The position numbers and the translations under genes were made by a program. Below, in pieces: positions 3,175 to 62,936 of a stretch of 64,000 nucleotides of DNA (position 1 is its first letter; every line of letters begins with the position of its first letter). Source of the stretch: Escherichia coli (GTDB lineage: Bacteria; Pseudomonadota; Gammaproteobacteria; Enterobacterales; Enterobacteriaceae); assembly GCF_001677475.2 (NCBI RefSeq), contig NZ_CP015229.1; one strand, written 5' to 3'. The notes under the pieces were generated by a model. It was not told the origin of the DNA, searched no databases, and saw only the letters and a program-made list of their open reading frames with translations.

Positions 3175-3280
3175 TGAAAAGTGTGAACCGGCTCAAAGTA
3201 GGTGTATTAACGAACAACAACGCCCTCACCCGTTAAGGTGATGGCAATCAAAAAAGATTACGGGCTGATGTGTACGTCAG

Positions 3281-4165
3281 CTATTGCTGGTCCGATTCTG
3301 CCAGGTCATCTTGGTCCTGGCCCAGGAGCGATAATTCCAACAATGCGTATCGGTGCTCAACAAAGTTATGAACGTTGTTGGCAACCGCCAGTTTGAACAG
3401 TGCCGTGGCGCTGTCCAAATCCCCCAGACTTAGGTAGTACTTACCTAAATAGAAGTTGGTTTCACTGAGATGCTCAGCGAGCGAGGTGTTATCCGTTGCG
3501 TCCGCCTTGAGCCTTTCCATTAACGTTTGTTCGCTAATGTTGCCCAGGTAGAACTCGACAATGTTCCATCCCCACTGTTCCTTATCCGATTTTTCGAAGT
3601 GCTGTTTCAACACTTCTTTAGCCTGCTTCTCATCGAGCTTCTGCTCGGCGAGATAAAGCCACAGACTACGGAAAGGATCATTGGGATCGTCTTGATAAAA
3701 CGCCAGCAGATCATCTTGCGCTAACTTGTCACGACCGCCGTAATATAATGCGATCCCGCGATTCAAGTGCGCGTAGTTGTAAGTTGGATCAAGCTCAAGT
3801 ACAGAATCAAACGCTTCATAGGCAGCATCAAAATTGCCTGCCTGCGTTAAATATATGCCTAAGTAATTGAATACTTCAGGCATATCCGGTCGGATTGCCA
3901 GCGCTTGCGAAAAATCGTTACGCGCTAATGCCCTCAGACCGAGACTATCATACAACACTCCGCGCTCATATAAAAGCTGTGCGCGTTCGTCATCGGTTAA
4001 AGCCCGACTGGCAAGGATTTGTTCCATACGTGCCAGAATCACTTCCTGCTGTAAAGTCGGTTGCAATGGTACCGCGAGGACTTCACTTTTACGCCAGGAA
4101 GTATTACTGCATCCTGCAAGCGTAAGTGCTGTCGCAACGAAACACCAGCGCAAAAAAGGCTTCAT
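3281..4165 (-). CDS. nlpI: TPR-repeat lipoprotein NlpI (294 aa)
   Basis: Translation [26 protein letters not shown]... with lipobox LAGC and TPR-like repeats; conserved position upstream of deaD. Confidence 0.95.
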
Positions 4166-4273
4166 TTCCCACTCCCGAAGACCACGGTTGAATGAACGTC
4201 CTGTTCCCGGTTGCTAACAAGGCGTCCTGCCCGGTTAAAAGCCCCCCGCCGCAGCGGAGGGCAAATGGCAACC

Positions 4274-6409
4274 TTACTCGCCCTGTTCAGCAGCCGGAGC
4301 TTCCGGTGCTGCAGCAGGTTGAGACTGCTCAGTCGCTTCTTTAATGCTCAGACGGATACGGCCCTGGCGATCAACTTCCAGAACTTTCACCGGTACTTCC
4401 TGACCCATCTGCAGGTAATCGGTCACTTTCTCAACGCGTTTGTCAGCGATCTGAGAGATGTGTACCAGACCTTCTTTACCGCCGCCGATGGCAACAAATG
4501 CGCCAAAGTCAACTATACGGGTCACTTTACCATTGTAGACGCGGCCCACTTCGATTTCTGCAGTGATCTCTTCGATACGACGAATAGCATGTTTCGCTTT
4601 CTCGCCGTCGGTCGCTGCGATTTTCACAGTACCGTCATCTTCGATTTCGATGGTGGTGCCAGTTTCTTCGGTCAGAGCACGGATAACAGAACCGCCTTTA
4701 CCGATAACGTCTTTGATCTTGTCCGGGTTGATCTTGATGGTATGGATACGCGGAGCGAACTCAGAGATATCGCCGCGCGGCGCGTTGATCGCCTGTTCCA
4801 TTACGCCCAGGATATGCAGACGCGCACCTTTAGCCTGGTTCAGTGCAACCTGCATGATCTCTTTGGTGATACCTTCAATTTTGATATCCATCTGCAATGC
4901 AGAGATACCGTCGCGGGAACCCGCAACTTTGAAGTCCATATCGCCCAGGTGATCTTCGTCGCCTAAAATGTCAGACAGTACAACGTAGTTGTCGCCTTCT
5001 TTCACCAGACCCATTGCGATACCCGCAACAGCAGCTTTGATCGGCACACCTGCGTCCATCAGCGCCAGAGACGCGCCGCACACGGAAGCCATAGAAGAAG
5101 AACCGTTGGATTCGGTGATTTCAGACACTACACGTACGGTGTACGGGAATTTGTCCATATCCGGCATGACTGCCAGCACGCCGCGCTTCGCCAGACGACC
5201 GTGACCAATTTCACGACGCTTCGGAGAACCGACCATGCCGGTTTCGCCTACGGAGTACGGAGGGAAGTTGTAGTGGAACAGGAAGGTGTCAGTACGTTCG
5301 CCCATCAGTTCATCAAGAACCTGCGCGTCACGAGCAGTACCCAGCGTTGCGGTAACCAGCGCCTGCGTTTCACCACGGGTGAACAGCGCAGAACCGTGAG
5401 TACGCGGCAGCACGCCAGTACGCACATCCAGACCACGGATCATATCTTTTTCACGACCATCGATACGCGGTTCGCCTGCCAGTACGCGGCTACGAACAAC
5501 GTTTTTCTCGATCGCGTGCAGAATTTCACCCAGTTCGTTTTCGTCCAGGGTTTCGTCTTCAGCAAGCAGCGTCGCGATGGTTTCAGATTTGATGACATCA
5601 ACCTGCGCATAACGCTCTTGTTTGTCGGTGATGCGGTAAGCATCACTCAGACGAGCTTCAGCCAGTGCAGCAACGCGCGCGTTCAGCGCTTCGTTTACCG
5701 GCTCCGGCTGCCAGTCCCAACGCGGTTTACCGGCTTCTTTCACCAGTTCATTGATGTTCTGAATAACAACCTGCTGTTGTTCATGACCGAACACTACTGC
5801 GCCCAGCATCTGGTCTTCACTCAGCAGTTCAGCTTCAGATTCAACCATCAGTACAGCGGCTTCAGTACCCGCAACAACCAGATCCAGTTTGCTCTCTTTC
5901 AGCTCGTCCTGAGTCGGGTTCAGTACGTACTGGTCATTGATGTAACCTACGCGGGCAGCACCAATCGGACCATTGAACGGAATACCAGACAGAGACAGTG
6001 CTGCGGAAGCACCAATCATCGCGACGATATCCGGGTTAACTTGCGGGTTAACAGAAACCACGGTGGCGATAACCTGAACTTCGTTGACGAAGCCTTCCGG
6101 GAACAGCGGGCGAATCGGGCGGTCAATCAGACGCGCGATCAGGGTTTCGCCTTCGCTTGGGCGGCCTTCACGACGGAAGAAGCTACCCGGGATACGACCA
6201 GCAGCGTAGGTACGCTCCTGATAGTTAACGGTCAGTGGGAAGAAGTCCTGACCTGGTTTGGCTTTTTTCTGGCCAACAACGGTAACAAATACCGCGGTGT
6301 CATCCATGCTAACCATAACAGCGGCAGTAGCCTGACGAGCCATCATGCCGGTTTCCAGAGTCACGGTGTGTTGGCCGTACTGGAATTTACGAACGATCGG
6401 ATTAAGCAA
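4274..6409 (-). CDS. pnp: Polynucleotide phosphorylase PNPase (711 aa), TTG start
   Basis: Translation (M)[30 protein letters not shown]... through KH/S1 C-terminus; start is TTG (complement of 6407..6409), as known for E. coli pnp. Track ORF (740 aa) over-extends. Confidence 0.95.
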
Positions 6410-6610
6410 TGTAATATCCTTTCTCTTTCTTAGACAGTACCTTACGGCACTGGTGTTAATACCCGATCTTCTGCGCATCCTCGCGACTAATGACAACCCT
6501 AACCCAGCTCTATGTGGGTAAAGCCTCTCATTAGCCGCGCGAACCTCTGCAACGGAAGATCATTCATAGCAACAATACATTAGTTTCCAGTGAATTGCTG
6601 CCGTCAGCTT

Positions 6611-6640
6611 GAAAAAAGGGGCCACTCAGGCCCCCTTTTC
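6611..6640 (-). terminator. rpsO intrinsic terminator (hairpin also usable from the plus strand)
   Basis: ggggccactcaggcccc hairpin flanked by A-run on plus and T-run on minus, 16 nt downstream of the rpsO stop. Confidence 0.7.
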
Positions 6641-6655
6641 TGAAACTCGCAAGAA

Positions 6656-7021
<366 letters not shown>

Positions 7022-8468: not shown

Positions 8469-8505
8469 ATTTCAGGTGGAAGGGCTGTTCACGTTGGCCT
8501 GATAA

Positions 8506-8569
8506 GACGCGCCAGCGTCGCATCAGGCAATCCATGCCGGATGCGGCGTAAACGCCTTATCCCGCATGG
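8506..8569. repeat. REP/BIME-type palindromic units in the infB-rbfA spacer
   Basis: gcctgataagacgcgccagcgtcgcatcaggc and gccggatgcggcgtaaacgccttatcccgcatgg resemble E. coli REP consensus. Confidence 0.6.
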
Positions 8570-13263: not shown

Positions 13264-13329
13264 TAAAAAAAGGGCCTAAAGCCCAGTTATTCTGTAGTCA
13301 GATAACAAAAAACCCCGATAAATCGGGGC
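13264..13329 (-). terminator. Two tandem hairpin/U-tract terminators downstream of metY
   Basis: Minus strand: gggctttaggccc + ttttttt (13264..13283) and ccccgatttatcgggg + tttttt (13305..13329). Confidence 0.6.
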
Positions 13330-13453
13330 TTTATATAACTGAACCCTATAACCGCAACTGCGGTCTGGAGCACTTTCCAGAAGGATTTTTTCAAATCCCA
13401 CTACGAAGGCCGAAGTCTTCACAGTATATTTGAAAAAGGACTCTAAGGGAAAG

Positions 13454-24048: not shown

Positions 24049-24092
24049 GCAAAAAAATACCGACCCGGGTACAAGTCCCAGGTCAGCTACAA
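24049..24092 (-). ncRNA. graL: greA leader terminated by an intrinsic terminator (GraL-like short leader RNA)
   Basis: Minus strand GACCUGGG-ACUUGUA-CCCGGGUC hairpin followed by GGUAUUUUUUU, about 40 nt downstream of the predicted promoter and upstream of the greA start codon; 5' end is inferred. Confidence 0.45.
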
Positions 24093-24099
24093 TTCACAT

Positions 24100-24127
24100 T
24101 TTGATAGTCATTTTACCCTGAAGTTCC
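24100..24127 (-). promoter_or_regulatory. Sigma-E-type promoter (GGAACTT-N16-TCAAA) overlapping a sigma-70 -10 (TAAAAT) upstream of greA
   Basis: Minus strand reads GGAACTT cagggtaaaatgacta TCAAA; a close match to the sigma-E consensus with 16-nt spacing. Confidence 0.55.
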
Positions 24128-24203
24128 CGAAGGGTCATCGTTTACTTTATAGGGCGTTGCGCCGTAGTATGACGGCTCGATTCCAGGTTGTTAGCGCGAG
24201 ATT

Positions 24204-26865: not shown

Positions 26866-27831
26866 TCATTCGCCTGCGCGGGGTTGCGATACCACCGTTG
26901 TATGCTTACGTAATCCGCCCCAAATACGATGACCAATGGCGGAATACATCGCGCCCGCAACCACGACAAACGCACCGAGATAACCTAAAAGGTTTAACAT
27001 CGGTCTGGCGAAGAAATCGGGCCAGGCCAGTGATAAAAGATCTGAAAAAAACAGCGTAAACAGTGGGGTGAGCGTGATGATCGCGCTCACCTGCGCTGCC
27101 TGCCAGCGAGCCATCGCTTCCGCCAGGGCGCCATATCCTACCAATGTATTCAGTCCGCAAAAAATTAAACATGCGAGCTGCCAGTGGCTAAGCTGCGCTA
27201 TCACTCCTGGCTTTGCCAGAGGGAAGAGCGCGATTGTACACAAAGTGTACAGTAAAAACAGGATCTGCGGTGAGGCCAGCCGACGCAATAAAACCTTTTG
27301 CGCCACGCCATAACTCACCCAAACCGTCGCAGCACCGACCCCAAAGATAACTCCCCAGGTGTAATCGGTTAGCTTTGTAAATATCTCGACCAGACTGGTG
27401 TTAAAAAACATCACCAGGCCGCTCAGGAGCATCAATGCCCCTACAACCTGAGTGCTGCGCATTTTCTCTTTCAGGATAAATACGCTGGCAACCATCATGC
27501 CAACTGGCGAGAGTTGCCCAATCACCTGCGAAGCGGTCGGACTCAGGTATTGCAAGGATGAGCTGAACAGGATGAAGTTCCCAAACAGCCCGGCGGTCGC
27601 CACTGCCAACAAAATCAACCAGCGTGGCTTACGAAACACGCGTAATGGCGGCAACCTCTTCTTCACCGCAAGAATGGCACCAAGGCCAATACTCGCCATC
27701 AAGAAACGGTAAAACACGATTGTCGGAGGTTCCATCACCTCCAGCACCTGCTTCATTGCGATTGGCAACGCCCCCCAGCAAATTGCTGTGGTGAGCGCCA
27801 AAAGAATGCCAATGCCTGCCTGCTGCTTCAT
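26866..27831 (-). CDS. yhbE: EamA/DMT-family inner-membrane transporter YhbE (321 aa)
   Basis: Translation MKQQAGIGILLALTTAICWGALPIAMKQVLEVMEPPTIVFYRF..., 10-TM hydrophobic profile. Confidence 0.93.
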   Translation of the reverse strand: MKQQAGIGILLALTTAICWGALPIAMKQVLEVMEPPTIVFYRFLMASIGLGAILAVKKRLPPLRVFRKPRWLILLAVATAGLFGNFILFSSSLQYLSPTASQVIGQLSPVGMMVASVFILKEKMRSTQVVGALMLLSGLVMFFNTSLVEIFTKLTDYTWGVIFGVGAATVWVSYGVAQKVLLRRLASPQILFLLYTLCTIALFPLAKPGVIAQLSHWQLACLIFCGLNTLVGYGALAEAMARWQAAQVSAIITLTPLFTLFFSDLLSLAWPDFFARPMLNLLGYLGAFVVVAGAMYSAIGHRIWGGLRKHTTVVSQPRAGE

Positions 27832-30283: not shown

Positions 30284-30330
30284 GTGGTCTGGCGGTAGCC
30301 CCGCGAACGGGGCTGCCAGCTCTCAGACGA

Positions 30331-31590
<1,260 letters not shown>

Positions 31591-45671: not shown

Positions 45672-45792
45672 GTGCGGCCTGAAAAACAGTGCTGTGCCCT
45701 TGTAACTCATCATAATAATTTACGGCGCAGCCAAGATTTCCCTGGTGTTGGCGCAGTATTCGCGCACCCCGGTCTAGCCGGGGTCATTTTTT
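45672..45792 (+). ncRNA. arcZ: ArcZ (SraH/RyhA) Hfq-dependent small RNA, about 121 nt
   Basis: GTGCGGCCTGAAAAACAGTGCTGTGCCCTTGTAACTCATCATAATAATTTACGGCGCAGCCAAGATTTCCCTGGTGTTGGCGCAGTATTCGCGCACCCCGGTCTAGCCGGGGTCATTTTTT matches my recollection of ArcZ; 3' terminator hairpin plus U-run overlaps the arcB stop codon. Confidence 0.85.
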
Positions 45793-55894: not shown

Positions 55895-57022
55895 ATGGAA
55901 TCGCTCTCAGAGAGAACCTCAACAGGCTACCAGCAAATCCACGACGGTATTATTCATCTGGTCGATAGCGCACGGACGGAAACGGTACGTAGCGTTAACG
56001 CGCTGATGACCGCGACATACTGGGAAATTGGCCGACGAATTGTCGAATTTGAACAAGGTGGCGAGGCCAGGGCTGCGTATGGTGCGCAGCTAATCAAGCG
56101 ACTATCAAAGGATTTAAGTCTAAGGTATAAGCGTGGGTTCTCTGCAAAAAACTTACGCCAAATGAGGCTTTTTTACCTCTTTTTTCAACATGTTGAAATT
56201 CGCCAGACAGTGTCTGGCGAATTAACACCATTGGGAATTCCGCAGACACCATCTGCAGAATTCCCATCGGCAAAGATTTGGCAGACGCTGTCTGCCAAAT
56301 CTTTCCCCCTGCCCTGGTCCACCTACGTCCGTTTACTTTCCGTTAAAAACGCTGACGCCCGCAGCTTTTATGAAAAAGAGACGCTCCGCTGTGGCTAGTC
56401 TGTTCGCCAGCTAGAACGGCAAATTGCGACCCAATTTTATGAGCGAACACTACTGTCACATGACAAATCAGCCATGCTGCAACAACATGCTCCTGCCGAG
56501 ACGCATATTCTTCCGCAACAGGCGATACGCGATCCTTTTGTGCTTGAATTTCTGGAGTTGAAAGATGAATACTCAGAATCCGATTTTGAGGAGGCGCTGA
56601 TCAACCACCTGATGGATTTCATGCTGGAACTTGGGGATGATTTTGCCTTTGTTGGTCGACAGCGAAGGTTACGCATTGATGACAACTGGTTTCGTGTCGA
56701 TCTGCTGTTTTTCCACCGCCGTTTACGCTGCCTGCTAATCGTCGATCTAAAAGTGGGCAAATTCAGCTATAGCGATGCCGGACAGATGAATATGTATCTC
56801 AACTACGCCAAAGAGCACTGGACGCTACCGGATGAAAATCCGCCCATCGGTCTGGTTCTCTGTGCAGAGAAAGGAGTCGGAGAAGCGCATTATGCACTGG
56901 CTGGTTTGCCTAACACCGTTCTGGCGAGTGAATATAAGATGCAACTACCTGATGAAAAACGACTCGCGGATGAACTCGTTCGAACACAGGCGGTGTTAGA
57001 GGAAGGCTATAGACGCCGTTAA
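55895..57022 (+). pseudogene. yhcG: yhcG (DUF1016, PD-(D/E)xK nuclease-fold family) interrupted by an in-frame TAG at 56396..56398
   Basis: Track fragments 55895..56398 and 56474..57022 share one frame; read-through gives a 375-codon ORF. C-terminal part carries a D...DxK-like motif (VDLLFF...IVDLKVGK). Confidence 0.8.
56201..56304. repeat. Three adjacent palindromes with a CAGAC..GTCTG core inside yhcG (a fourth lies at 57038..57062 after the stop)
   Basis: cgCCAGACAgTGTCTGGcg (56201..56219); gggaattccGCAGACaccatCTGCAGaattccc (56233..56265, one mismatch); aaagatttgGCAGACgctGTCTGCcaaatcttt (56272..56304, perfect 15-bp arms). Confidence 0.7.
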
Positions 57023-58418: not shown

Positions 58419-59104
58419 AGCACCGCCTTTTTCATCGCTGTGTTGTACCACTGACAAATGTGTTCAAGACGCGTAATGGCAGAACCGACCGTCACCGCCC
58501 ACGCGCCGTGGCGCATCGCATCTGCCGCCTGAGCAGGCGTGTTGTAACGCCCTTCGGCAATCACCCGACATCCGGCGTCGCTCAACGTTTTCACCAGCGC
58601 CAGATCCGGCTCTTCTGGCGTTTCAGGCGTGGTATAGCCAGAAAGCGTAGTGCCAATAATTTCGGCTCCCAGCTTTTGGCATGCCAGGCCGTCTTCCGGC
58701 GTTGAGCAGTCGGTCATCGCCAGTAAACCGTGATGGTGAATACGTGCCAGCAACGTTTCAACAGGCACCGGACGCGGGCGGTCGGTGCCGTCAATGGCGA
58801 TAATGTCCGCGCCCGCCTGCGCCAGCGCATCAACATCTTCAATATAGGCCGTGATGCGTACCGGAGAATCCTCCAGATCGCGTTTCACAATTCCAATAAT
58901 CGGCACGCTCACCACCGCACGCGTGGCTTGCAGATTTGCCACACCTTCAATACGAATGGCGACCGCGCCCGCCTGCTCTGCCGCTAATGCCATGGCAGCG
59001 ACGATTTCGGGTTTATCGAGCGGGCTGTCCGGAACCGGCTGGCAGGAGACAATCAGGCCACCGTTAGCAGCGATTTTTTGATCCAGTTGTGCAAGTAACG
59101 ACAT
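58415..59104 (-). CDS. nanE: N-acetylmannosamine-6-phosphate 2-epimerase NanE (229 aa)
   Basis: Translation [76 protein letters not shown]... Confidence 0.93.
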
Positions 59105-59151
59105 ACATCTTCCCTTAGCGAAAGGCCCGGTACAGAGACCGGGCAACAGGA

Positions 59152-60642
59152 TTAACTTTTGGTTTTGACTAAATCGTTTTTGGCGCTGCCAAACGGCACG
59201 GCACCGCTGAATGGTTTACCGTCGATAGCGTCATGAGTACGCAACGCTTCCGGGCGCAACCAACGCTGAACACGAGAAGGCATATCCAGACCAATCAGCA
59301 GGATCACCACAAATGTCAGACTGAACGAGAGCGATGCCAGCGCCGTCCCCAGATCCAGACGTTGAGCGATCAACGCGCCGATGATTGGGGCCAGTGCGCC
59401 ACCCAATGCGCCAACGTTATAGGTAAAGCCCAGGCCCGCTGCACGCTGGTCGGTATCGAAATAACCGCCAATCAGTTTCGGTAAGATCCCGGCGATCCCT
59501 TGTCCAAGCATTTGCTGGAAGAACAGTAACAGACCGAGCACCCAGACGTTTGCGCCGCCAATCGCAAATACCGGAATAATCAGCAGCTGCGAGGCCAGCA
59601 GGCTACAAACGTACGCTTTGCGGGTTCCCAGCCAGTCACCGAGGAAGCCACCTACGCAGCATCCCACCGCCGCGCCAAAGCCACTAAAGAACAGCACATT
59701 GGCGACAGTATGCGGGTTATAAGCCAGATCGGTTTTCAGATACGTTGGCAGCAGCGCCTGAATCGGCCATGAGTAGAGGAAAGCAAACAACACGACCACC
59801 ATCAGCATTACGCCCGTTGGCCAGCGTTTGCCCGTACTTTGCACCATAAAGCTGATAAAGATTGCGGCGCATAACAGCCCAAGAACAGCGACGATCGCGG
59901 CATTTTGCAGGTTACCGGCGAAGCAAAACCACAGCGCAGTAGCCGCCGCCAGTGTCATTACGATATTGGCAATGCGATGTTCACCCCGGTAGAGAATATC
60001 TACCATCGTGCGTACTGGTGCTTTACCAGCATGTTTCTCTTTCCAGTCTTCCGCTTCCGGGATGTTTTTACGCAGCCAGAGAGCAAAGATGATTGGCAAA
60101 ATGCCGATAAAGAACAGCGCACGCCAGCCCCAGACCGGAACCACCAGGCTATAGACCTGAGCGGCAACGACGGCCCCCACAGAGAAGCCGGAAATCAGAA
60201 AACCACTGGCTTTATTACGCAGATGTTTTGGCCAGCTTTCAATGACATAGGTGGCGCTGGAACCGTATTCACCCGCCATCCCCATGCCGATGACCAGACG
60301 AGCGATAAACATGGTGATGTAGCCTGGCGCAAAGCCGCAGGCCAGCGTCCCGGCCGAGAAGAGAACGATGCTGGTGACCATTGCCAGACGACGCCCGTAG
60401 CGGTCACCCATAGCGCCGAGCATCAGGCCGCCGAACCAGCGAGAGATAAAGGCTGCGGAGATCAGACTTGCCGCCTGCACCGTCGTCAGCCCGAATTCAC
60501 CTTGTACTTCGGTGAGTACCAGGGCGATTAAAACGAAATCAAAACCGTCAAGCAGATATCCCAACCAGGCAGCGGAAAATGCCCGCCATTGTGCACGATT
60601 GAGATGGCGATACCACGGGATATTCTGGGTTGTAGTACTCAT
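59152..60642 (-). CDS. nanT: Sialic acid transporter NanT (MFS, 496 aa)
   Basis: Translation [72 protein letters not shown]... Confidence 0.93.
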
Positions 60643-60750
60643 TGTGAGTCTCCCGCGGTGGGCGATGCCCACACGCTTTGGTATGAAAATTGTAGGGTAC
60701 AGATGCGTTTATTTCCCCTCACCCGGTAGGGGCGAGCGAGGGGAAACAAC

Positions 60751-61644
60751 TCACCCGCGCTGTTGCATCAACTGCTGGGCCAGCGCCTTCAGTTCTGGCA
60801 GATATTTTTCATCTACCGGTCCAAACGGTTTGCGGCACAGCGGCACAGAAACGACATCCATATAATGGAGGACAGTTTTCAGGCCGCGAAATACGCCCGT
60901 TTTGATCAGTAAATCAATGACTTTATTGCACTCAGTTTGCAGTTTCTGCGCGGTCTGGATATCGCCTTCTTTCAGCGCCTTAACAATGCCCTGATAACGC
61001 CAGCCCATGATGTTGTAGGTACTACCGATACCACCATCAGCGCCCGCCAGAAGACCAGAGGCGAAGATTTCGTCGTAACCGTTATAGAGCACCAGATCAG
61101 GATGTTCACGACGGATCTGTTCCATCTGATAGAGATCGCCAGAAGTCTGTTTCAGCGCACCGACGCCAGGCAACGTAACAAGTGTGTTGATCTGATCCAG
61201 GGTCAGTTTTACCCCACTCAGGGCTGGAATGTTGTACACCACCATCGGCAACCCATCCGCTGAATCAATAATTGCCCGATAGTGATCGCAGTGTTCTTCA
61301 AAGCTGAAAGGATAGTAGAACGGCGTAACGGCAGAGACGGCATCGAAGCCATAACGTTTAGCCGATGCCGCAAGTTGTTGGCTTTCAGCAGTGCTGACGC
61401 AACCTACGTGAGCGATGAGTTTAATCTTGCCTTTCGCCTCTTCGGCGACGATTTCCAGTACCTGTTCACGCTCGGAAAGGCTTTGTACAAAGGCTTCGCC
61501 GGTAGAACCACCCACGTATAAACCGTCGATGCCCTGCTGAATATTGAACTGAACCAGGCGACGCAGACTCGCTTTATCCAGTGCTTGTTGTTGATCAAAA
61601 GGAGTCAGGAGTGCGGCCATTACGCCACGTAAATTCGTTGCCAT
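60751..61644 (-). CDS. nanA: N-acetylneuraminate lyase NanA (297 aa)
   Basis: Translation [81 protein letters not shown]... Confidence 0.97.
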
Positions 61645-61679
61645 AAATACCTCTGAAGTGATGCTTGTCTGATAAACGA

Positions 61680-61702
61680 TATACCTTTATACCTGTTATA
61701 CC
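61680..61702 (-). promoter_or_regulatory. NanR operator: three tandem GGTATA repeats in the nanA promoter
   Basis: Minus strand reads GGTATAacaGGTATAaaGGTATA about 40 nt upstream of the nanA ATG. Confidence 0.6.
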
Positions 61703-61765
61703 AGATCAATTAAGCAACACCCCATACAGAAAGCTTATAATGCGATCTGCTTCACTAAAGTGGCA

Positions 61766-62557
61766 TTATTTCTTTTTGTTGGTGCTCTGACCGAAGGCAT
61801 GCCAGGTAGCAGAGACGCTGTTGAGATGCGATTGCAACGCGCGATCGGCTTCATCGGGATCGTGGCGGCGGATCGCGTCAACGATCGCAATATGCTGTTG
61901 ATAGCTAACGTTGTTATGCTCGTGCAGAGCCTGATCAGCCACGGTTGGACGTGCGGCGATTAGCCAGTCGAGCAGGGCAACGTGGATCGCCATGAAGATT
62001 GGGTTACCTGGGATCTCCGCCAGCACGCGGTGGAAATCAACGTCTGAGCGAATGAATGCCGCGTTGTTATCCAGCGACTGACTGTTGATTTCCAGTGCTT
62101 TTGCCAGCAAATCGATTTGCTCATCGGTGGCGTGTTCAGCCGCATAGCGCACCAGGCTGGATTCAAAGAACAGACGTAATTGTTCGAAATGGGCAATCCC
62201 ACCTGGATGAGAAAGGAAATCTTTCGCCATGCCGGAAAGCTCGCCGATGATGGTGTCCGCAGAAGGTCGAGAGACACGAGCGCGTTCGCCGTTGTTTATT
62301 TGCACCAGACCTTTGCGTTTTAACGCTGCCAGCGCTTCACGCACAGAAGGACGCCCGACGTTAAAGAACGCCATCAGTTCGCGTTCAGACGGTAATTGTT
62401 CACCTTCGCCAAATTCACGACGGCGGATCATCTGTTCCAGCTCTTCTTCCACCATTTCGGAGAGTTTTTTACGCGCCAGCGGGCGGCTGCGCAAGTTGCG
62501 ACCAATTGCAGGTGAAGAATCTTCGGTTTGCGAATCAAATGCGTTCATAAGGCCCAT
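61766..62557 (-). CDS. nanR: GntR/FadR-family transcriptional repressor NanR (263 aa)
   Basis: Translation [79 protein letters not shown]... Confidence 0.95.
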
Positions 62558-62936
62558 TCTGTAAGGTCAGTGTGATTAACATCATCAGTGACATCCTATC
62601 ACAGGATTGAAAGTAGGGGAAAATGGCAGGGTTTTCTCTTTGTGCCTCATCATTACCATAATTAATGGAATAATTAACTATTGCGGAAAATTAATGTAAC
62701 GCAGATAAAAACATCCCGATTGAATTATTTATAAGACTATTCACGAGCATTATGAATATTATGAATGTGTTCTTACAAAATAATCATAAGCGCATATTTT
62801 TTAATGAAAAATCACCTCACCCACAATTAAAAACACGACATCCGCACCATAAATAGACTTGCAAAAAATATAACATCATTGTTTTCAATCTGCCGTTTAT
62901 GGGATTGACCGTTTTCTTTTGACACGGAGTTCAACA

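Follow-up and report, generated by a model that had tools for sequence, protein, structure and literature searches.

A stable hairpin in the nanA-nanT spacer of Escherichia coli is probably a diverged BoxC repeat copy and lies beside a predicted Spot 42 site

REP/BIME hairpins are said to act as intercistronic mRNA stabilisers, with malE-malF as the example credited to Newbury in 1987, and a stem-loop of the puf operon reportedly works as a "decay terminator", as Chen is said to have described in 1988. BoxC is a repeat of E. coli and enterobacteria that measures about 50-56 bp and is present in 22-32 copies in K-12; to our knowledge no function has been assigned to the family. REP hairpins stop 3'-to-5' exonucleases, stabilising the upstream mRNA, and are also able to attenuate transcription (PMC12306157). 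When they lie less than 16 nt from a stop codon they stall ribosomes and lower translation (Liang et al. 2015, summarised in PMC12306157). A different route to unequal expression within one operon is taken between galT and galK, where the small RNA Spot 42 gives rise, via RNase E and Rho, to a stable upstream galET mRNA, the new mRNA 3' ends being protected by stem-loops or RNA hybrids (PMC8577784).

The locus described here is the spacer between nanA and nanT, of 108 nt (60643-60750). All coordinates refer to the window, that is, the whole 64-kb stretch of DNA analysed. The nan operon occupies its minus strand in a K-12-type arrangement, according to the ORF list and the RefSeq annotation of the identical K-12 region, and both sources place nanE as the next gene after nanT on the same strand. 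The features used below are the following:

61766-62557, minus strand: nanR (ORF list and RefSeq annotation)
60751-61644, minus strand: nanA coding sequence, N-acetylneuraminate lyase (ORF list; RefSeq annotation of the identical K-12 region)
60753-60751, minus strand: nanA stop codon, TGA
60709-60749, minus strand: hairpin 1, 17 pairs (RNA fold), beginning 1 nt past the nanA stop codon
60749-60733, 60732-60726 and 60725-60709, minus strand: 5' arm, loop (CCCCUAC) and 3' arm of hairpin 1
60743-60733 paired with 60725-60715, minus strand: GC-rich core of hairpin 1 (core extent 60715-60743)
60711-60747, plus strand, antisense to the mRNA: BoxC-like element, TTTCCCCTCACCC-GGTA-GGGGCGAG(CGAG)GGG-AAAC
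60692-60703, minus strand: UCUGUACCCUAC, predicted Spot 42 site, fully complementary to Spot 42 nt 1-12
60655-60676, minus strand: hairpin 2, GCG-U-GUGGGC-AUC-GCCCAC-CGC, directly 5' of the nanT Shine-Dalgarno
60654-60650, minus strand: nanT Shine-Dalgarno GGGAG, read from the sequence, with a 7-nt spacer to the ATG
60640-60654, minus strand: nanT ribosome-binding region (GGGAG to ATG)
60642-60640, minus strand: annotated nanT start, ATG
59152-60642, minus strand: nanT coding sequence, sialic acid transporter (ORF list from the annotated ATG; RefSeq annotation)

Read along the mRNA, the spacer runs from the stop codon through a strong hairpin, the Spot 42 site, an AU-rich linker and hairpin 2 to the ribosome-binding site, and as a whole it folds at -45.9 kcal/mol (z -4.4, mRNA strand). 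By BLAST it was found in 5408 of 5426 complete E. coli genomes, always as a single copy in one place per genome and with no near-identical second copies in E. coli; identity was at least 99% in 5395 of them, a conservation within E. coli that alone says little. No repeat feature is annotated at the spacer in NC_000913.3 or in a second K-12 record. A search of the whole window against Rfam at gathering threshold gave no match in the spacer, and a permissive search of 59000-62800 returned a sole match that was at chance level (E 3.9) and outside it.

Several other features of the region were recorded in passing. When the entire spacer is folded to minimum energy, UGAGU (the nanA stop and the next 2 nt, 60749-60753) pairs on the minus strand with ACUCA (60645-60649), which sits between the nanT Shine-Dalgarno and the AUG, so that the pairing closes the spacer into one domain; with 5 bp only, it is possibly due to chance and possibly a weak device for translational coupling. 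Two antisense ORFs over the spacer on the plus strand (60512-60865 and 60589-60729) were discarded as mechanical ORFs without support. Elsewhere in the window, Rfam matches at gathering score (6468-6639, 6869-6983, 8496-8566, 13265-13365, 24052-24173, 45672-45779) corresponded to SraG, the S15 leader, naRNA4 (REP325), the rimP leader, the greA leader, ArcZ and two tRNAs, and all of these are to be expected in this K-12 region.

On the mRNA, the arms of hairpin 1 read UUGUUUCCCCUCGCUCG / CGGGUGAGGGGAAAUAA, the stem has the A-rich run AAAUAAA at its base, and the GC core begins 8 nt after the nanA UGA. It folds at -26.8 kcal/mol, compared with -11.0 +/- 2.5 for dinucleotide shuffles (z -6.4, none of 200 as good). 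The antisense (plus) strand reaches only -17.6 kcal/mol, because two G-U wobbles become A-C mismatches there. Among some 64,000 sliding 45-nt windows over both strands of the 64 kb, hairpin 1 ranks as the fifth most stable local fold and only 0.03% reach -26 kcal/mol; its stability is therefore far above chance. The four folds that exceed it (-27.3 to -29.4 kcal/mol), at 30287-30331 (plus), 56226-56270 (minus), 4238-4282 (minus) and 27055-27099 (plus), may be terminators or REPs.

These results agree with a preliminary description of the spacer which had proposed, from the sequence, a stem-loop within the nanATEK transcript, in the nanA-nanT spacer; the mRNA-strand fold has 17 bp, and the folding-energy calculation suggested there does predict a stable structure. 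The sequence that it quoted, tttatttCCCCTCacccggtaggggcgagcGAGGGGaaacaac, is present at 60708-60750 of the plus strand. This is the strand antisense to the mRNA, and the stem seen on it had 6 bp, compared with 17 pairs on the mRNA. The stem-loop itself stands, but its position, given as about 60700-60735, was some 10 nt off, the core lying at 60715-60743 and the full hairpin at 60709-60749. The BoxC resemblance, the 12-nt Spot 42 complement and the covarying hairpin at the nanT ribosome-binding site, all treated below, were absent from that account.

The function first suggested for hairpin 1 was that of a partial intrinsic terminator, which would pass only a fraction of polymerases into nanT. 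The GC-rich stem has terminator-like stability, and BIME/REP elements have been reported as transcription attenuators (Espeli 2001, cited in PMC12306157), but a U-tract after the stem is missing on both strands (mRNA AAAUAAACGC; plus strand AAACAAC). The mRNA directly past the stem reads AAAUAAAC and continues as AAAUAAACGCAUCU, and either strand is T-rich before the stem and A-rich after it, the reverse of terminator geometry. A consensus terminator scan found no terminator-like site within the spacer. The nan operon is repressed without sialic acid. The Term-seq tables of Adams 2021 list no 3' end in the spacer, and neither nanA nor nanT appears in the TERMITe terminator tables, both of which are weak observations given that the operon is repressed in those conditions and that both sets of tables may be incomplete. 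Hairpin 1 is very improbable as an intrinsic terminator, and the proposal is best removed as a false lead. A processing or stability role touching the nanA:nanT ratio, on the other hand, may plausibly be attributed to the predicted structure.

Two further records concern the other end of nanA. The Adams 2021 Term-seq data contain a strong 3' end that lies 45 nt into the nanA ORF (K-12 3373531, minus; window ~61599), and the Hfq CLASH tables contain a chimera of CpxQ, the small RNA from the cpxP 3' UTR, with the nanA start region (~61630-61655). Together they suggest that nanA may be regulated at its 5' end.

We compared hairpin 1 with the BoxC family using an HMM profile built from the 22 published E. 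coli K-12 copies (available as FASTA in the supplement of PMC2267715) and searched with nhmmer. The BoxC consensus is TTTTCCCCTCACCC-TAA-CCCTCTCCCC-AAA-GGGGCGAGGGG-ACCG, its left box being also written CCCCTCACCC. Both the left and the right box can be recognised in hairpin 1, and the middle box (TAACCCTCTCCCC) is missing. The best match of the entire window to the profile falls precisely here (60716-60736, plus strand, 10.8 bits, E 0.024 with 128 kb searched over both strands), and the second best is the same place on the opposite strand. The score was reached by none of 5000 mononucleotide shuffles of the 43-mer and by one of 5000 hairpins in which the original base pairs had been reordered at random. 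It is a weak match all the same, at ~11 bits, with an extrapolated whole-genome E-value above 1. The element is extragenic, lying in the nanA-nanT spacer, does not figure in the list of 22 published copies, and is not multi-copy, BLAST having placed it once in each of 5408 E. coli genomes; it is too diverged for BLAST to find other BoxC copies with it. Of the motifs typical of full copies, GGGTGAGGG has one other occurrence in the window (3223-3231), at chance level, and CCCTCTCCC..GGGAGAGGG has none.

We fetched 80 nanA loci, one genome per Enterobacteriaceae species, and compared 81 distinct spacers. The nanA-nanT synteny is kept in all 80 loci, with spacers of 32-403 nt whose contents are the following:

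All Escherichia: hairpin 1
Pseudocitrobacter faecalis (L009), P. vendiensis (L011) and Enterobacter sp. kpr-6 (L048): composite palindromes CCCTCACCC..CCCTCTCCC..GGGAGAGGG..GGGTGAGGG
Kluyvera: shorter versions of the Pseudocitrobacter-type composite palindromes
Salmonella, Citrobacter, many Enterobacter and Lelliottia: REP/BIME-type elements (GTAGGCCGGATAAGGCG...)
Raoultella, Phytobacter, Edwardsiella, Buttiauxella and Leclercia: unrelated hairpins
Trabulsiella (L046, L047): spacer of 32-33 nt, hairpin absent

All 29 profile matches with E<=1 in 82 loci (0.96 Mb counting both strands) lie within nanA-nanT spacers; our script flagged 28 of them, the remaining one being the K-12 spacer itself, in the unflagged locus L002. 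Full copies (E 1e-4 to 1e-11) occupy the orthologous spot in P. faecalis (two), Enterobacter sp. kpr-6 (two) and P. vendiensis, where the 403-nt spacer contains five (L011 3396-3729), and the Kluyvera spacers (L010, L024) contain partial copies with E 6e-4 to 7e-3. The Escherichia loci all score 9-12 bits. In the alignment, the Escherichia hairpin falls on the distal, antisense-oriented BoxC unit of P. faecalis and Enterobacter sp. kpr-6, and the flanks are shared as well: TGAGTT upstream and AAACGCATC downstream are common to E. coli and P. faecalis, the downstream stretch TTCATACCAAAGCG is common to E. coli, P. faecalis and Enterobacter sp. kpr-6 (and was also recorded for all BoxC-bearing loci), and Kluyvera has the downstream flank AGGGGAAAT in common. 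The element of Enterobacter sp. kpr-6 matches a dispersed E. coli repeat found at a median of 9 places per genome. From this sequence comparison, hairpin 1 is probably a truncated and diverged BoxC copy that shares ancestry with the insertions of Pseudocitrobacter and Enterobacter sp. kpr-6.

The E. coli matches of the Enterobacter sp. kpr-6 element include another BoxC-bearing spacer. The E. coli lldD-trmL spacer (L083 1495-1632; K-12 about 3781030-3781160) carries an inverted pair of full copies, the published eco16 and eco17, a few nt past the lldD stop, an arrangement that parallels the nanA-nanT junction of Pseudocitrobacter.

Other genera carry a different repeat at the same point. The Salmonella spacer element matches a dispersed repeat found at a median of 17 places per genome, and coordinates 3400-3485 of locus L013 give an example of a REP-type spacer. 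By regex classification, the REP consensus (GCCGGATG...; ...CTTATCCGGCCTAC, as quoted in PMC12306157) is absent from the Escherichia spacers, unlike those of Salmonella, Citrobacter and Enterobacter, and the RepRanger supplements contain no nanA entry. The nanA-nanT junction looks like a hot spot for the gain and loss of repeats, and the hairpin-free Trabulsiella spacer indicates that a hairpin at this junction is therefore dispensable.

Such turnover raises the question of whether hairpin 1 is a neutral relic, a repeat copy in decay that a permissive spacer tolerates and that has no effect on nan expression. The free exchange of BoxC, REP-type elements, unrelated hairpins or nothing at all among genera would be expected under this explanation, and there was no bias towards greater stability on the sense strand across genera (39 of 81 distinct spacers, Wilcoxon p 0.79). 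Against it, 59 of the 81 distinct spacers have a stem of 5 bp or more that begins no further than 15 nt from the nanA stop. The element is also at least 99% identical in 5395 of the 5408 E. coli genomes, although within-species conservation says little.

The question was followed within Escherichia by comparing seven distinct variants from E. coli, E. albertii, E. whittamii and the cryptic clades. In every one of them hairpin 1 folds more stably on the mRNA strand (-21.5 to -29.9 kcal/mol, versus -16.4 to -27.3 on the other), and standard pairs make up 95.8% of its pair cells. No change occurs in the 3' arm of the GC core or in most of the A-rich base, and one lower-stem column varies. All four variable positions of the GC core are on the mRNA 5' arm, where the change retains pairing through wobble (C-G/U-G three times, A-U/G-U once) and would give A-C mismatches on the other strand. 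This pattern, pairing preserved by four of four substitutions on the mRNA strand only, counts against a neutral relic, but the chance of obtaining it (a rough estimate of 0.004-0.06) makes it suggestive only. Covariation in hairpin 1 was not significant in these seven variants, as 371 of 500 shuffles reached the observed score, and its divergence among Escherichia species is similar to that of the remaining spacer, both as would be expected of a relic. On balance we think a neutral relic rather unlikely, while giving it real weight.

The likeliest place in the spacer for setting the nanA:nanT ratio lies just downstream. Using the Spot 42 sequence of the annotated spf gene (NC_000913.3), we found that the perfect complement to its first 12 nt is located 5 nt 3' of hairpin 1 and 50-61 nt upstream of the nanT AUG, and that this 12-mer occurs once in the window. 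The predicted duplex extends to 60707-60691 with Spot 42 nt 1-16, at -23.7 kcal/mol, compared with -15.6 +/- 2.3 for shuffles (1 of 60 as good), and the site ranks first in a scan of 22-nt sliding windows over the spacer and the first 60 nt of nanT. In the minimum-energy fold the complement is largely unpaired between hairpins 1 and 2, with a weak local stem of 4 bp. It is invariant across all Escherichia loci, and a related complement (..CCCUACA) of the Spot 42 5' end also occurs outside the genus, 23-65 nt before the nanT AUG, in Franconibacter (-24.0), Citrobacter freundii strain M-21 (L063), Siccibacter, Leclercia, Silvania, Phytobacter and Atlantibacter. Such a complement was absent from the spacers with BoxC or REP-type elements. 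Both PMC12612679 and PMC3295665 count nanT among the targets of Spot 42, with reference to Beisel & Storz 2011 and Beisel 2012, and 60703-60692 may be the pairing site used in vivo. No Spot 42-nanT chimera appeared in the Hfq CLASH tables searched, in whose conditions nan expression is low.

Hairpin 2, at the nanT ribosome-binding site, does show covariation. In an alignment of 17 sequences from about 10 genera, its 6-bp inner stem includes two pairs in which both partners have changed (G-C/A-U/G-U and C-G/U-A/G-C), pairing holds in 87.6% of cells, compared with 50% or less when the partners were slid, and none of 500 shuffles reached the covariation score. Buttiauxella and Franconibacter have unrelated stems at this position. 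The Spot 42 site and hairpin 2 are better candidates than hairpin 1 for setting the nanA:nanT ratio.

The closeness of these elements suggests a subordinate role for hairpin 1, in which it and hairpin 2 would keep the Spot 42 site single-stranded, or it would offer a landing site for Hfq, and would matter only for the repression of nanT. The complement does lie 5 nt past hairpin 1 and is predicted to be largely unpaired, and the AAAUAAA at the stem base is A-rich, but Atlantibacter, Siccibacter, Leclercia and Franconibacter retain the complement downstream of unrelated hairpins, and the missing chimera in the CLASH tables, with the low nan expression there, does not favour it either. We hold this accessory role to be improbable.

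A further possibility comes from the distance to nanA. Beginning 1 nt past the UGA, with its GC core 8 nt past it, hairpin 1 is within the 15 nt over which, by analogy with the REPs of Liang et al. 2015 (via PMC12306157), it might stall the terminating ribosome and act as a brake lowering NanA output. The stalling effect is known for REPs and not for BoxC, however, and nanA is reported to be very strongly inducible, up to 1000-fold (PMC3658417); a translation brake seems to us a doubtful explanation.

We favour, with somewhat less than even confidence, the view that hairpin 1 is a truncated BoxC copy fixed in Escherichia which serves as a passive exonuclease barrier sparing the nanA mRNA, and not as a terminator. 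It is because the layout of the nan spacer matches the precedents that we read it as a passive barrier for the nanA segment; the barrier role, and any link of hairpin 1 with Spot 42, are inferred. The diverged BoxC copy would be transcribed within the nanATEK mRNA, antisense to the BoxC consensus. The operon mRNA would be cut or terminated further downstream, possibly after Spot 42 pairing at 60703-60692, via RNase E or Rho, and 3'-to-5' exonucleases would then halt at hairpin 1, so that the nanA segment would outlast the nanT segment. The decision on the nanA:nanT ratio would itself be placed at the Spot 42 site and hairpin 2.

A more ambitious version, which we consider speculative and unlikely as a whole, joins the three elements into a single module made of a domesticated BoxC decay terminator, the Spot 42 site and hairpin 2, the last shielding the 5' end before the nanT ribosome-binding site. 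On glucose, with low cAMP-CRP and high Spot 42, the mRNA would be severed at the Spot 42 site, leaving a stable nanA-only message while nanT decays. If true, it would be the first function for a BoxC-type repeat. Hairpin 1 by itself matters little. It adds one degenerate and previously unlisted copy, BoxC-like in its boxes, to a family for which we know of no function, and, with a Spot 42 complement of very high strength only 5 nt away in an operon whose second gene is a published Spot 42 target, it may bear on how an upstream cistron is spared under small-RNA silencing. The nanA-nanT junction as a whole provides a natural comparison series for asking whether such repeats really tune the relative expression of neighbouring cistrons.

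Compared with the known systems, hairpin 1 resembles an intrinsic terminator in being a GC-rich hairpin of comparable stability, and differs from it in the lack of a 3' U-tract and in being U-rich 5' and A-rich 3' of the stem on both strands. With the BoxC family it shares the left box TTTCCCCTCACCC, the right box GGGGCGAGGGG, the extragenic location and the nature of a GC-rich imperfect palindrome, and undoubted copies of the family occupy the equivalent position in related nan operons; it departs from the family in lacking the middle box TAACCCTCTCCCC, in the duplicated CGAG, in its score of ~11 bits, in being single-copy and in its absence from the 22 listed copies. Like the malE-malF REP and the puf stem-loop, it is a stable intercistronic stem-loop placed after a more strongly needed upstream gene, and a REP-type dispersed repeat occupies this very spacer in Salmonella and Citrobacter, but the E. 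coli spacer is without the REP consensus motif and the stabilisation of nan would hold by analogy. The galETKM operon at galT-galK is close to nan in that the same small RNA and an intercistronic site are concerned, nanT being a published target. The predicted nan site differs in lying 50-61 nt upstream of the start codon, without overlap, and the galET message of the gal operon offers the parallel for the proposed nanA-only message.
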